Below are positions 24,773 to 33,167 of a stretch of 39,834 bases of DNA, piece by piece. The notes beneath the pieces are model-generated. The model was given only the letters and a program-made list of their open reading frames with translations. It had not been told where the DNA came from and did no database searches. The stretch lies in IMG/VR virus record IMGVR_UViG_2563366858_000008; one strand, written 5' to 3'. A program made the position numbers and the translations under genes. How positions within the stretch are numbered: position 1 is the stretch's first letter; each line of letters starts with the position of its first letter. This DNA comes from a virus (Duplodnaviria > Heunggongvirae > Uroviricota > Caudoviricetes).

Positions 24773-24849
24773 GTGGCATTAGCTCAGTTGGACAGAGCAA
24801 CCGCCTTCTAAGCGGTTGGTCGCAGGTTCGAATCCTGCATGCCACGCCA
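24773..24849 (+). tRNA. tRNA-Arg (anticodon UCU), phage-encoded
   Basis: Full cloverleaf: acceptor GTGGCAT/ATGCCAC, D-arm GCTC/GAGC, anticodon stem ACCGC/GCGGT with loop CTTCTAA, T-arm GCAGG-TTCGAAT-CCTGC, discriminator G and encoded CCA. Confidence 0.95.
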
Positions 24850-28311: not shown

Positions 28312-29259
28312 TTATTCACCATCCTGCTCAGGCGGTTCTGGCAGCGGCATCCAGTGTGATGGAATCCACGACGCACCAGGAATTATCCAACCATCATTAG
28401 CGTCAGGATGTCCCGGTATGTAAGTCGCCCATTTCATTCGCCAGTCACCTTTCCTGTCAAACTCCACGGCAACAAGAACGGCTGTTTTGGTATCCGGCAT
28501 TCGCTCACTACAGCTTATCCAACCATCCGGAGTTACCGGATAGTTGCCAGCCAGTCTACGCAAAACAGCCTTAACAGCCTCAATACGGTCATCATCGCAA
28601 TTTTCCAGCGTATCTATGCGGTCGAGCATGATGATTGCGTTATCAATATCAGGATTGCCGGTCCACTCATTACCGCGATTGGATTCGGCAGCCTGGTTGC
28701 CACGTACTGGTTGATTCTCGGCTTTACCCTGTCTGTCGTCGCTGCATGAATGCCCTTCCAGCCAGACCAGTGCTTGTCGCATGAAATACGCAATATGCTT
28801 GCCGTGGTAATCGTCTTCATCGATGTGAAAAGCGATACTGCGGATATATTCAATTGCGTTTTCAATGGCCTCTAACGCTATCGGTGCTGGCGGAGTGGTA
28901 TATAGTTTTCGACATTTGTTTATCCAACCGGCATGGTCAGGCGTGTCTGTAAAGCGCAAATCGTCTTCGTAGCCCTCACGACTACGTTCTTTCCATTCCG
29001 TCCACGGAACACCGCTATTCCAAGTGGGGCGAGTGCAGGACTGATACAGAACAGGCTCTGCTTCCAGCGATGCCAGCACAATTCGTGCCAGCTCACGCAC
29101 TACTTCCGGGGGCGCGTAACGGTCATTCAGGTCATCCCACAGGCGTAGCATGTTATCGCTACTAGGGTGAACATCCTCGTTAGTTCCGGCAAGCGCACTA
29201 ATAACCTCATCGGCTGCCTCAATAATTTTCAGAGCTTGTTCTCTGGTAATAGTGGTCAT
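28312..29259 (-). CDS. DUF551-type phage protein
   Basis: 315 aa; C-terminal WMPLPEPP motif typical of DUF551 (recalled); ATGA overlap with upstream gene. Confidence 0.55.
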   Translation of the reverse strand: MTTITREQALKIIEAADEVISALAGTNEDVHPSSDNMLRLWDDLNDRYAPPEVVRELARIVLASLEAEPVLYQSCTRPTWNSGVPWTEWKERSREGYEDDLRFTDTPDHAGWINKCRKLYTTPPAPIALEAIENAIEYIRSIAFHIDEDDYHGKHIAYFMRQALVWLEGHSCSDDRQGKAENQPVRGNQAAESNRGNEWTGNPDIDNAIIMLDRIDTLENCDDDRIEAVKAVLRRLAGNYPVTPDGWISCSERMPDTKTAVLVAVEFDRKGDWRMKWATYIPGHPDANDGWIIPGASWIPSHWMPLPEPPEQDGE

Positions 29260-29771
29260 GCCGCGTTTCCTTCTTTCTTATTAACAATTACACCGTCATA
29301 TATTTCATTAAGGTGCCCTCTCAACTCCATGCGCCTTAATGCAGATAACATGTAATCGCATTCAACCTGCTTATTTCCAGTAAATGGCTTATCGTCAGGA
29401 TTACCCCAACAGCAATTACCCTTGGGCCACCCATGTACTTTCCGTACTCTTCCGTTAACAACGTGAAGTAATCCCCAGCCAGGTGGTAAATCCTCAATTG
29501 AAATAATTCCCGGCTCACTAATAAAGAATCGCCAGTCGCCCATTCCAAGAGACGGATTTTTACGAAAACGCTTTTTTCTATCTGCCAACAAGTCAGCACG
29601 AGAACATTTCGCCTCTATCAGGCATGATGCTGAATTTCTGAATCCCATAGCATCTGGCTGTTCTCCGGTACTGGTTACAGCTATAAAGCGGTCATGAAAA
29701 CAAACCTTGAACCCGTTGCGCTTAAGGAACTTGTACGCAATCTGACAGAGTTCGCGGTGTGTTAACGCCAT
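29256..29771 (-). CDS. PD-(D/E)xK nuclease-like protein
   Basis: Start MALTHRELC at ATG 29771; motif PDAMGF...CLIEAKC resembles a PD-(D/E)xK catalytic core. Confidence 0.45.
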   Translation of the reverse strand: MALTHRELCQIAYKFLKRNGFKVCFHDRFIAVTSTGEQPDAMGFRNSASCLIEAKCSRADLLADRKKRFRKNPSLGMGDWRFFISEPGIISIEDLPPGWGLLHVVNGRVRKVHGWPKGNCCWGNPDDKPFTGNKQVECDYMLSALRRMELRGHLNEIYDGVIVNKKEGNAA

Positions 29772-29772
29772 A

Positions 29773-30405
29773 TCACTCTCCTTTGATGCGAATGCCAGCG
29801 GCGCGTGGCACATTAACTTCCACGATGCGCACAGTTGGTTTGTACATCTCAATCGCTGTCAGCCAGTCAGCGCCAGTCATGCGCTTTTCTGCATCGCCAT
29901 TAGTCCACTTAACCGGTACACCAATAGCCTTCATCGCGATTTCTATTTCCCCGGCAATGGCGCTTTTTCCGCAACCAGTAAAACCAGAAACAACGACAAG
30001 AACTTCACCTTTGGCTGGTTTTATTTCCCGTGCTTCCAGTTCAGCAATACGCTTACTCCCATCCGAGATAACACCTTCGTAATACTCGCGTTGCTCGTTG
30101 AGTTTTGATTTTGCTTCCTCAAGCTCAACACGCAGTTTCCCTACCGTTAGCGCAATATCCTCGTTCTCCTGATCGCGGCGTTTTATGTATTGCTGGTTTC
30201 TTTCCCGTTCATCCAGCAGCGCCAGCACGGTTTCTGGTCCGGCCAGAAATTTGAAGGCGTTGAGCGCATCAATATCCACACCGTAATCTTTAAGTTCCTG
30301 TTCACTTAACAAATCATCATCAGATGGCAACATTAACAGGCGTTCCATTGCTGGAATTGCACGTTCCGCCACCTCACGCAGTGCCTGGTAATTAATTTCG
30401 CTCAC
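29773..30405 (-). CDS. Ea22-like early protein with C-terminal P-loop-like motif
   Basis: N-terminus MSEINYQALREVAE resembles ead/Ea22-like proteins (recalled); C-terminal VVVSGFTGCGKS is Walker-A-like. Confidence 0.5.
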   Translation of the reverse strand: MSEINYQALREVAERAIPAMERLLMLPSDDDLLSEQELKDYGVDIDALNAFKFLAGPETVLALLDERERNQQYIKRRDQENEDIALTVGKLRVELEEAKSKLNEQREYYEGVISDGSKRIAELEAREIKPAKGEVLVVVSGFTGCGKSAIAGEIEIAMKAIGVPVKWTNGDAEKRMTGADWLTAIEMYKPTVRIVEVNVPRAAGIRIKGE

Positions 30406-31022
30406 TGGTTGCCTCCTTTGCGAAGCTGGGCAGCAAAGTCAACTAACCACTCAGTCATTTCAACCTTCCCTACCAGGTCTGAACCAGGGTGCATACAGCA
30501 ATCACTCTGCGCCGCTTTGAAATCCTTATACTCATATTCTTGGGCCACCAGATTTTTTGCAGCTTCTATAGCAGCATCCACCCCCTGCGCCCGTACTTCA
30601 GCCAGAAAAGCATCGGTGGCTGGGGTGTCAACACGGATACTGTCGCGCAAGATGAAAAATGCATTGAGCATCCCAGTCTCCGGCACTTCATCCTGATACT
30701 TCTCATACGCATCAAGAGCCTTCATCATCTCAGGTCCGAATGGTTGAGGGTGCGCAGCCTTCAGCGCCGCATTCTCCGCTGCCAACGCCGAAAACTTCTC
30801 GTGTGCCAACTTAACAGCCGCATCAGCCTGCTTAATTGACTCAATCGCGCTCTGGTGGTCTTCGGCCAGCGCATTAGCACGCACCAGTTGCACTTCCAGT
30901 TGCGTTGCCAAATCGCTGAGCAGCTTTGCCACACTGCGCATATCAACGGCACCACATTCAGCTTTCAGTTCCGAAGCCATCTCATGCCCGGCGGCAACTA
31001 ACCCTTTGATATTACTTTCCAT
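30402..31022 (-). CDS. Hypothetical early protein
   Basis: 206 aa; ATGA overlap with downstream gene. Confidence 0.5.
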   Translation of the reverse strand: MESNIKGLVAAGHEMASELKAECGAVDMRSVAKLLSDLATQLEVQLVRANALAEDHQSAIESIKQADAAVKLAHEKFSALAAENAALKAAHPQPFGPEMMKALDAYEKYQDEVPETGMLNAFFILRDSIRVDTPATDAFLAEVRAQGVDAAIEAAKNLVAQEYEYKDFKAAQSDCCMHPGSDLVGKVEMTEWLVDFAAQLRKGGNQ

Positions 31023-31083: not shown

Positions 31084-31428
31084 TCAGAACTCTTCGATGT
31101 TCCAGCCACCACCTGCTTTCTTTGGTTTAACCGTTACCCCGATGATTCGGAACGGATACTGATCTGCGGCGACTTTGGTTTTCACCCTGGCGTCGTCGGT
31201 CCAGAAACCTTTCACTTCGTGCAGTTCCATCTCGCCGGTGGCGAGCATCACAGCGAAATCGGGCGTATAGAACGTGTTGTCAGCTAACCGCAGCTTGATA
31301 CCCTCGAATCGATACCAGGCGATTTCCCCTGCACGTTTACGCTGCTCAAGGTGCTGGCAATACACAGATTCTGTTTTGTTCATCTGGCCTGTTTTGAGTC
31401 GACCAAGAGCCTGTATCTGTTTTCTCAT
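31084..31428 (-). CDS. DUF1064-type nin-region protein
   Basis: GAGGT RBS 5 nt before ATG 31428; 114 aa; family assignment from memory. Confidence 0.5.
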   Translation of the reverse strand: MRKQIQALGRLKTGQMNKTESVYCQHLEQRKRAGEIAWYRFEGIKLRLADNTFYTPDFAVMLATGEMELHEVKGFWTDDARVKTKVAADQYPFRIIGVTVKPKKAGGGWNIEEF

Positions 31429-31545: not shown

Positions 31546-32331
31546 TTACTTGATAAATCCTGACGCCTTTCCCCGCCTGTATTCCTCCATCAGCCACTGC
31601 GCCGGTGTTATTCCCCCCAGGGTGGCGGCGTTAGGCATGCACCCGAAACTTCGCCCTGGCGGGTGGTAAACGTCTCTCCCTGTGTCCGGAGGCGTACTCA
31701 TGGGTTCTGGCTTTGCCTGTATGCTGATCACCGGATCGGGTATCTGCTGCCCGGAAGCCACCTTTTTCGCCCAATCATCGAGCAGCCTGCGCGCGTGTTT
31801 CTCAACCTCAATCTCGCTAAGCTGGCGCTGATACATTGCACGGCGGGTATCACATACGACCCAGTACATAACCGGATGCCGCCACGGGAATCTTTCGGGA
31901 CCACCAGGATATAAACTTTTTTCCTTGCTGTACCGGTGAAACTCCGCCATCACATCGTCAATGGTGACGCCAAGAACCATCTTGCTGTCTTTACACCACT
32001 TGATAAATTGCCCTGGCGACGGCCAGAACGGAGATTCACTGGCGCGGGCGTGGCGCATACCAGCAGAAACCTGTTCACGGGTTCGGATCCCCCCTTCGGC
32101 AAACGCAGCAATCCACTGCTGTTTTGCAGCAACTTCCTGCTCTGGCGTCTTCAGGTTGGTTACTACTGCCGCCGGAAACAGTTGTTTCAGCTGTTTGAAA
32201 AGGGCATCAACAAGCCTCTCTGCTGACATGTTCACCACATTGTCATTGTTGACGTACTGATGCTCATAACCTGACATGCGAGAAAGGGCTTCTCCGTCAC
32301 GGTTTTGTATCGCGGTAAAAACGTTGTTCAC
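31546..32331 (-). CDS. Replication protein P-like (helicase loader)
   Basis: Segment FPAAVVTNL...WIAAFAEGGIRTREQVSAGMRHARASESPFWPSPGQFIKWCK aligns with lambda P (recalled); GGAGGA RBS before GTG 32331, overlapping the O-like stop (GTGA). Confidence 0.8.
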   Translation of the reverse strand: MNNVFTAIQNRDGEALSRMSGYEHQYVNNDNVVNMSAERLVDALFKQLKQLFPAAVVTNLKTPEQEVAAKQQWIAAFAEGGIRTREQVSAGMRHARASESPFWPSPGQFIKWCKDSKMVLGVTIDDVMAEFHRYSKEKSLYPGGPERFPWRHPVMYWVVCDTRRAMYQRQLSEIEVEKHARRLLDDWAKKVASGQQIPDPVISIQAKPEPMSTPPDTGRDVYHPPGRSFGCMPNAATLGGITPAQWLMEEYRRGKASGFIK

Positions 32332-33167
32332 AAGAAATCCTCCCACGCTTCAGGGCTGTTCCAGTGCGGAACGTTGTTATCAGGTAATGTTGATTGCTTC
32401 TGTCTGCTAATCTGCAGCCGCCTTCCCAGCTTCTGCTCCCACTGTGCCTGATGGTATGCCTTACCCTCAGCCATCCAGTAAATTCTGAACTCTGCAAGTT
32501 CCTGTGCCGTTGGCAGACTGTCCAGGTAGATCCCCTGCAATGAGCTTTTCCGAAGAAAGTCATCTGATGGTTGCCATTGTTCATGCATGACAAATTTGCC
32601 TAATTGCCCTGGCCCACCAGGAGGAACAAAGTTATTCATCACGGCGTTGTTTGCGCCGGGGTCATGAGGCACAGAATCCCCGGTTTTTGTCCTGCTCTCC
32701 CTCTCTTGGTTAAATGACTGGTTATATGACTGGTTCTGGATCCCGTTTTTGGGATCATTCAACATCCCGTTTTTGGGATCATTCAACATCCCGTTTTTGG
32801 GATCATTCAACATCCCGTTTTTGGGTATATTCCCGTTTTCGGGAACATTACCGTTTTCGGGTTCATTACGTCCTTCTAGGTTGCCTTTAATGTTCCCTTT
32901 TTTGGTTATATTAAGAGAGAAAACCCGCACTCTTTTCGTCGCTCCCTTTCTCTCTCCGGTATCTGAAATAAGCCCCATTTTCATGAGCGATATAAGCCCG
33001 GCCTGCACGGTTTTTTTATTCAGGCAAGTGTCTTTAACGAGGCGTTCTATGCTGGGGTAGCAGAGGTTATATTCATCGGCTCTGTCAGCCATCGAGAGCA
33101 GTATGAGCTTTAATGACGAGCTACCTGGATCTGTCTCCCAGGCCCAATCTGTTGCATGTCTGCTCAT
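32328..33167 (-). CDS. Replication initiator O-like, with internal origin iterons
   Basis: N-terminal helix-turn-helix-like region; central NGMLNDPK x3 repeat encoded by DNA iterons; directly upstream of P-like gene. Confidence 0.7.
   Translation of the reverse strand: MSRHATDWAWETDPGSSSLKLILLSMADRADEYNLCYPSIERLVKDTCLNKKTVQAGLISLMKMGLISDTGERKGATKRVRVFSLNITKKGNIKGNLEGRNEPENGNVPENGNIPKNGMLNDPKNGMLNDPKNGMLNDPKNGIQNQSYNQSFNQERESRTKTGDSVPHDPGANNAVMNNFVPPGGPGQLGKFVMHEQWQPSDDFLRKSSLQGIYLDSLPTAQELAEFRIYWMAEGKAYHQAQWEQKLGRRLQISRQKQSTLPDNNVPHWNSPEAWEDFL
32741..32866. repeat. Origin-like iteron array inside the O-like gene
   Basis: Three exact 24-bp units TCCCGTTTTTGGGATCATTCAACA (32741, 32765, 32789) then three degenerate 18-bp units, each with a CCCG-T(4-5)-GGG dyad; AT-rich stretch follows. 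Confidence 0.75.

Follow-up and report, generated by a model that had tools for sequence, protein, structure and literature searches.

A mosaic accessory region of a tailed phage encodes an Ea22-type protein with a P-loop-like cassette and a predicted PD-(D/E)xK nuclease

The locus

The window analyzed here is a stretch of 39,834 nucleotides from a tailed phage (Duplodnaviria; Heunggongvirae; Uroviricota; Caudoviricetes), IMG/VR record IMGVR_UViG_2563366858_000008, and our subject is two adjacent genes on its minus strand. ORF B (29773..30405) encodes a mosaic protein of 210 amino acids that matches Pfam PF13935 and is named ead/Ea22-like family protein in RefSeq. ORF A (29256..29771) encodes a protein of 171 amino acids with a predicted PD-(D/E)xK nuclease fold and a distant relationship to the MmcB-like/DUF1052 family. 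The 1150 bases that hold both genes match, with 100% identity, a prophage carried on the E. coli isolate AF5 chromosome (NZ_OZ547033.1), and phages TL-2011b and phiV10 are among those that have mosaic segments in common with the region. An original prediction, made from the letters of the window, had described a nin-like region in which a nuclease-like protein is paired with an Ea22-like protein that carries a Walker-A-like motif.

Both reading frames are intact, and the tight coupling that had been claimed for them extends to a chain of four minus-strand genes (28312..31022). As read from the sequence, the stop codon of the upstream eae-like gene (30402..31022) overlaps the GTG start of ORF B in a GTGA, and the stop codon of ORF A overlaps the ATG start of a downstream DUF551 gene (28312..29259) in an ATGA. 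The TGA of ORF B is followed by one base and then by the ATG of ORF A, with a GGAG lying within the final codons of ORF B. A scan for promoters and terminators found none on the minus strand inside the four coupled genes, and the number of sites was no higher than in shuffled sequences. The minus-strand gene order is DnaT-like, P, DUF1064, eae-like, ORF B, ORF A, DUF551, two small genes, and the small terminase subunit. The term "nin-like" is therefore a fair description by position, as replication gene P lies on one side of the genes and the small terminase subunit on the other. In a Morganella prophage, a homologue of ORF A is flanked by NinB and NinF/NinG, and in O157-type lambdoid prophages, the ORF A gene and Ea22-type relatives are located in the exo-xis region.

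ORF B and its C-terminal module

The description of ORF B as Ea22-like was confirmed by a match of residues 2–124 (30034..30402, minus strand) to the entire 139-position Ead_Ea22 model of Pfam (E 8e-38; 130.6 bits against a cut-off of 27). This N-terminal and helical region ends in the linker RIAELEAR (30028..30051). The Ea22 protein of lambda consists of a short N-terminus, a tetramerizing coiled coil, and a dimeric C-terminal domain (PMC10834534, PMC8614690), a tetramer with a dimeric C-terminal domain being known for the lambda and P27 proteins only (PMC10834534). The Ea22 variants of Stx phages (V1–V3) have unrelated C-terminal domains, including DUF551 in V2 (PMC10834534, PMC8614690). Deletion of ea22 favors lytic growth (PMC7093339), and a pro-lysogenic role has been indicated for the lambda and Stx proteins (PMC7093339, PMC10834534).

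Compared to lambda Ea22 and Stx variants V1–V3, ORF B has the N-terminal and helical region and the exchangeable C-terminal architecture in common. It differs in two respects. First, its C-terminal domain is a P-loop mini-module, a variant not mentioned in the cited papers on Ea22; the terms "Walker", "P-loop", and "ATP" are absent from the text of a published account of the Ea22 variants (PMC10834534). Second, the gene is found downstream of the replication genes, between gene P and terminase, and not between exo and xis in the pL-driven exo-xis position.

The mini-module comprises about 70 amino acids (residues 132–201; 29803..30012, minus strand) and includes a Walker A motif, GFTGCGKS (residues 141–148; 29962..29985), and a Walker-B-like motif, VRIVE (29818..29832). 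The original prediction had the protein ending with VVVSGFTGCGKS, but this was incorrect: 62 residues are C-terminal to the Walker A motif, and they include conserved GEIE, EK..T.ADW, and P.VRIVE motifs that are part of the same module.

In a search of 1.84 billion representative sequences, the last 90 residues of ORF B matched 446 clusters (50% identity) at E <= 0.001. The module consensus over about 70 residues is GEVLVxVSGxTGxGKSAxAGEIEI..G..V.W..G..EK..T.ADW..A.E.Y.P.V.IVE.N.P. Among 149 cluster representatives, 127 have the module at the C-terminus, 10 at the N-terminus, and 7 at an internal position, and in 2 it stands nearly alone. GxxGxGK[ST] is present in 146, and an extension of the module into a full-size NTPase was found in none. 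Its carrier proteins range from 110 to 623 amino acids, and the regions to which it is joined, such as Ea22 helices, a Lar-type zinc ribbon, and Ala/Pro-rich stretches, are mutually unrelated. Pfam holds no family dedicated to the module.

The module is found in Enterobacterales (355 of 5426 complete E. coli genomes) as well as in beta- and alphaproteobacteria (Methyloversatilis, Pandoraea, Methylobacterium, and Mesorhizobium), and also in Burkholderia phage BcepC6B and in jumbo phages of Burkholderia and Ralstonia. The alpha- and betaproteobacterial copies, at 49–61% identity, retain GxxGxGKSA, GEIE, EK..T.A.W, and P.V...E.

A further segment, LAERxRQV..EG[FW]T.E[HR]DD, adjoins the module in BcepC6B gp37 (L008 2917..3516) and in an Ea22-like protein of locus L027, and it also adjoins the ORF A domain in protein P0100. 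It represents one more mobile module in this gene pool.

Relationship of the module to P-loop kinases

Searches of Pfam and the PDB with the module gave P-loop matches only below threshold, and these were consistent in kind. Among 37 module carriers, sub-threshold Pfam matches were to AAA_16 in 35 and to APS_kinase in 33, and the weak PDB profile matches were almost all to P-loop proteins (UvrA, gluconate kinase, APS kinase, shikimate kinase, and a designed phosphate-loop protein). In hhalign comparisons, which were pairwise against single sequences and gave E-values without database correction, the module matched the APS kinase CysC of E. coli at 96.1% (E 2.9e-9) over 40 columns with 35% identity. 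Module residues 4–43 align to CysC residues 29–68, covering strand 1, Walker A, helix 1, strand 2, and the Asp of the DGD motif. Gluconate kinase (GntK) matched at 85% over 24 columns that cover the P-loop and helix. As controls, the GTPase CysN and adenylate kinase (the latter with a sequence entered by hand) each gave 2%, and CysD, which is not a P-loop protein, gave 0.07%. Because CysC and GntK score high and the controls reach only 0.07–2%, the resemblance, as judged from sequence profiles, appears to be specific to APS-kinase-type kinases and to extend beyond the loop.

The Walker A pattern GxxxxGK[ST] of the module lies between a hydrophobic strand and a helix, the V, I, and E of the Walker-B-like V-R-I-V-E are invariant, and the Asp after strand 2 aligns to the DGD of CysC. 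The complete five-stranded alpha/beta core is absent: compared to CysC and GntK, the module ends at about 70 residues and is without strands 4 and 5, the lid, and the substrate-binding elements. Two parts of the original prediction thus stand, the P-loop-like motif (CysC, 96%) and the shortage of sequence for a full NTPase, while the placement of the motif at the end of the protein does not. In size and in strand, P-loop, and helix content, the module is like the designed minimal phosphate-loop proteins (PDB 6c2u/6c2v), to which its match is not significant (E 1.1). Any functional analogy between the module and these designed proteins would be putative.

Structure prediction, which had been proposed as a check on both proteins, upheld a nuclease fold for ORF A, as described below, but gave no matching solved fold for the module. 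The AlphaFold (AF2) monomer model of a 90-residue construct has no sheet, a helix begins inside the GKS of the motif (residue 27), and a comparison of the model with solved structures gave no match.

The lack of a sheet and of a structural match in this model is consistent with a different view, in which the Walker-A-like motif is vestigial and the C-terminal domain serves, like that of lambda Ea22, in interaction or dimerization and does not bind nucleotide. The module is also about half the size of the smallest P-loop NTPases, and no activity was detected for the C-terminal domain of lambda Ea22 alone (PMC10834534). Against this, sequence drift would be expected in a vestigial motif, yet GxxGxGK[ST] is kept in 146 of the 149 representatives and in every alpha- and betaproteobacterial copy examined; the similarity to CysC, moreover, spans helix 1, strand 2, and the Asp and is not confined to the loop. 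We consider a vestigial motif to be a serious alternative but a rather unlikely one.

Fold, family, and predicted activity of ORF A

The D...EAK arrangement noticed earlier in the 29256..29771 protein, and the PD-(D/E)xK assignment built on it, were both borne out by structure prediction, fold search, and the invariance of the catalytic residues. In an alignment of 76 homologues (58–88% identity), H5, E37, D40, E53, K55, D60, D64, and K67 are invariant, and these include the catalytic motif (29607..29654, minus strand) formed by D40 (29652..29654) and E53-A54-K55 (29607..29615). The AlphaFold model built from this alignment has a predicted local distance difference test score (pLDDT) of 92, a predicted template modeling score (pTM) of 0.86, and the order alpha-beta-beta-beta-alpha-beta. 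D40 is at the start of the second strand (41–45), and E53 and K55 stand at the end of the third (48–54). ORF A thus has the core fold of the PD-(D/E)xK superfamily, and its catalytic D...(D/E)-x-K residues occupy the expected strands 2 and 3.

Assignment to a family within this superfamily is less direct. Searches of Pfam, NCBIfam, PADLOC, and PDB sequences with ORF A yielded nothing significant, and its PHROG families have no assigned function; a "DNA repair protein" family was matched weakly. A profile search with the ORF A family gave a weak match to 3dnx, a DUF1052/PF06319 protein (PMC3424549); PF06319 carries the Pfam name "MmcB-like". A homologue search seeded with a padded 35-residue fragment of 3dnx yielded one fragment of 56 residues. 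With hhalign, the ORF A family profile matched an MmcB-like sequence, itself a reconstruction stitched across the frameshifts of a low-coverage contig, at 90.5% (E 1.3e-6) through the signature IE[AC]K-SR-D[FL]--D-K...G--DW.

ORF A thus has structural and profile similarity to the MmcB-like family but falls short of the threshold of the Pfam model: PF06319 matched neither ORF A nor any of its 76 relatives, even at E <= 10. Pfam Hjc (PF01870) was weakly matched by 25 of the 76 relatives, all below threshold, and the structural match of ORF A to the archaeal Holliday junction resolvase Hjc is far weaker than that to 3dnx. Because the MmcB-like model misses ORF A, and weak Hjc matches are seen in a third of its relatives, we treat ORF A as a probable sister lineage of the MmcB-like family and not as a member. 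Their settings also differ. The MmcB-like/DUF1052 proteins (PF06319; 3dnx, SPO1766; Caulobacter MmcB) are mostly encoded by alphaproteobacterial chromosomal genes (PMC3424549), and mmcB of Caulobacter is SOS-regulated (PMC9578287), whereas ORF A is an accessory gene of phages of Enterobacterales, Vibrio, and Pseudomonas.

An intact active site in a PD-(D/E)xK fold, together with an early-gene position, could suit a nuclease for host takeover that degrades host DNA non-specifically, and a natural knockout allele in O157 prophages, described below, could reflect counter-selection against a toxic gene. Such a role is nevertheless unlikely in our judgment. The nearest relatives (MmcB-like and Hjc) are of the repair or resolvase type and not degradative, ORF A is a small, single-domain protein without a targeting domain, and hundreds of prophages retain it intact.

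Distribution of ORF A and exchange of its neighbors

ORF A is present in 910 of the 5426 complete E. coli genomes (~17%), with up to six copies per genome, and its family was found in 641 phage records, which include Stx phages, P7, phages of Klebsiella, Pseudomonas, and Vibrio, and lytic Ackermannviridae. In some Salmonella proteins, an Ead_Ea22 N-terminus is fused directly to the ORF A domain; ORF A is therefore part of the same pool of modules.

The pairing of the nuclease with the P-loop protein, as proposed in the original prediction, did not hold up. ORF A and the P-loop module are contiguous in only 62 of the complete E. coli genomes, compared to totals of 910 for ORF A and 355 for the module. 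In every E. coli and P7 context examined, a single base separates ORF A from an ead/Ea22-like gene upstream of it; in one O104:H4 prophage, this upstream gene is itself labeled a fragmented pseudogene. These Ea22-like proteins have C-terminal domains that are unrelated to one another and to the P-loop module, but the domains begin after a common RIAELE[A/S]R segment, and all of the proteins end in (A)AGIRIKGE, followed by the TGA-T-ATG of ORF A. In the window, the common tail AAGIRIKGE lies at 29776..29802 (minus strand), where it forms a junction with the ribosome-binding site and start of ORF A. The 70-bp junction comprising the tail and the start of ORF A was found in 665 E. coli genomes. 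Conserved linkers flanking unrelated C-terminal domains argue for cassette exchange by recombination between the linkers, and this would explain why ORF A keeps the same type of neighbor while the C-terminal domain of that neighbor varies.

The exact combination of P-loop protein and nuclease is an incidental product of mosaicism and not a dedicated two-gene system. The opposite proposal, a toxin and regulator or a defense or anti-defense pair with the nuclease under the control of the P-loop protein, is quite improbable. ATPase and nuclease combinations are frequent in defense systems, the two genes are tightly coupled for translation, and one relative of the module (P0336) is fused to a Lar restriction-alleviation zinc ribbon. 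These points are outweighed by the low co-occurrence of the two genes and by the identical junction that connects ORF A to Ea22 genes whose C-terminal domains are unrelated, and on these grounds the dedicated pair was rejected. The module is also found in phages without a demonstrated ORF A, such as BcepC6B and the jumbo phages, and PADLOC gave no significant match. The role in host takeover or anti-defense suggested in the original prediction thus found no support in these analyses, the fusion of the module to a Lar-type domain being the single hint of it.

Similar shuffling is seen in the flanking genes. The DUF551 protein downstream of ORF A (Pfam DUF551, E 2.4e-20) has a long, variable N-terminal region. 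Since DUF551 is reported as the C-terminal domain of Stx-phage variant V2, this protein draws on the same set of shuffled modules as the Ea22 C-terminal domains. The upstream eae-like cassette gene (PHROG 492/368/614/250) has about 75 final residues (…TDAFLAEVRAQGVDAAIEAAKNLVAQEYEYKDF…LRKGGNQ) that recur in a gene annotated as ead/Ea22-like in another E. coli prophage (L028 2800..3486), and PHROG 250 is one profile that spans the N-terminus of the eae-like gene product and ORF B. With these common segments and this shared profile, the region looks like a tandem array of related cassettes.

Integrity of ORF A

In the identical genome and in other inspected genomes, RefSeq (PGAP) annotates 29593..29771, the first 179 bases of ORF A, as a "frameshifted" pseudogene and leaves the 3' two-thirds without annotation or as a separate small protein. 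This label arises because the reference is a 58-residue protein from O157:H7 prophages. In the alleles of those prophages, a 2-bp deletion disrupts the codon for the catalytic Glu53 (ATA GAG GCG AAA to AT- -TG GCG AAA). The deletion was seen in E. coli O157:H7 strain 611 and corresponds to positions 29613..29617 of the window. The shorter 514-bp allele accounted for approximately 6 of 30 evenly sampled E. coli matches (about one fifth), and the loss of the Glu53 codon may have come about by neutral decay or because an active nuclease was selected against.

Apart from the PGAP label, the evidence speaks so consistently against a broken gene (an unbroken frame of 171 codons; homologues of 171–172 residues in Klebsiella, Lelliottia, and Cronobacter; a copy in phage P7, Upf89.0, with all 171 residues identical; a single-domain model of the entire chain with pLDDT 92; and three E. 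coli alleles that differ by nine synonymous changes, one non-synonymous change, and no indels) that this reading, which has very little probability left, was rejected.

Other features of the neighborhood

The DUF1064 gene (31084..31428), three genes upstream, matches PHROG 190 ("Holliday junction resolvase") and, weakly, Phage_endo_I. The operon may thus encode two small nuclease-fold proteins, the DUF1064 product and ORF A. Further upstream, the DnaT-like replication gene (32328..33167) contains three exact tandem 24-bp repeats (TGGGATCATTCAACATCCCGTTTT) at 32750..32817, which encode the repeated peptide NDPKNGML and look like origin iterons within an initiator gene, as in lambda O. According to the RefSeq annotation, a tRNA-Arg gene lies at about 24773..24849 (L001 3518..3594), between the portal and terminase genes and a Gp49-family gene.

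Proposed explanation

The best explanation overall, which we hold with a confidence somewhat better than even, is a mosaic stretch of accessory genes in which an Ea22 scaffold carrying a kinase-derived P-loop cassette precedes an intact MmcB-like PD-(D/E)xK protein. The region would be part of the mosaic accessory array that occupies the exo-xis or nin regions of lambdoid, P22-like, phiV10-like, and P1/P7-like phages. In ORF B, a short N-terminus and an oligomerizing helical region would form the Ea22-type scaffold, and the C-terminal domain would be an exchangeable cassette set between the linkers ..RIAELE[A/S]R.. and ..AAGIRIKGE-stop. The cassette would correspond to the N-terminal half of an APS-kinase-like P-loop kinase, with a strand, Walker A, a helix, a strand with Asp, a helix, and a strand ending in Glu.

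By this explanation, the module would bind a nucleotide or phosphate ligand, and the Ea22 oligomer, probably through domain pairing, would be needed for a complete sheet and binding site. The module is expected to act as a binding or regulatory unit rather than as a stand-alone multiple-turnover NTPase, and it may modulate whatever Ea22 proteins do in the lysis-lysogeny decision. ORF A would be translationally coupled to whichever Ea22 variant precedes it, and its product is a predicted Mg2+-dependent endonuclease that may act on branched or damaged DNA in phage replication and recombination.

Several observations weigh against this explanation. First, Klebsiella and Morganella prophages are found without an Ea22-type gene directly upstream of ORF A. 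Second, the P-loop matches of the module in Pfam and the PDB stay below threshold, and the kinase comparisons carry the pairwise, uncorrected E-values noted above. Third, the Pfam MmcB-like model misses the whole ORF A family, and the DUF1064 gene, being a putative resolvase-type gene in the same window, could make a recombination role of ORF A redundant.

A more specific idea is that the module represents a natural minimal P-loop domain, a portable ligand-binding cassette that would be functional only when the Ea22 coiled coil joins two or four copies. This proposal is speculative and rather unlikely.

Significance

The P-loop cassette is a new variant both of the Ea22 architecture and of the P-loop theme, and ORF A adds a new member to the known PD-(D/E)xK superfamily. 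Despite the RefSeq pseudogene label, the ORF A family can now be treated as an intact, predicted MmcB-like nuclease. If the mini-module does bind nucleotides, it would rank as unusually small among the natural examples of an ancient fold. If the oligomer-dependent proposal is true, phages could use a minimal P-loop cassette as a sensor or a sink for ATP or a nucleotide signal, either in the choice between lysis and lysogeny or against host defense. Ea22 is among the last uncharacterized early genes of lambda-type and Shiga-toxin phages and influences the lysogeny-lysis decision; an Ea22 cassette set between fixed linkers, together with the probable kinase-fold origin of one common cassette, provides concrete handles for its biochemistry.

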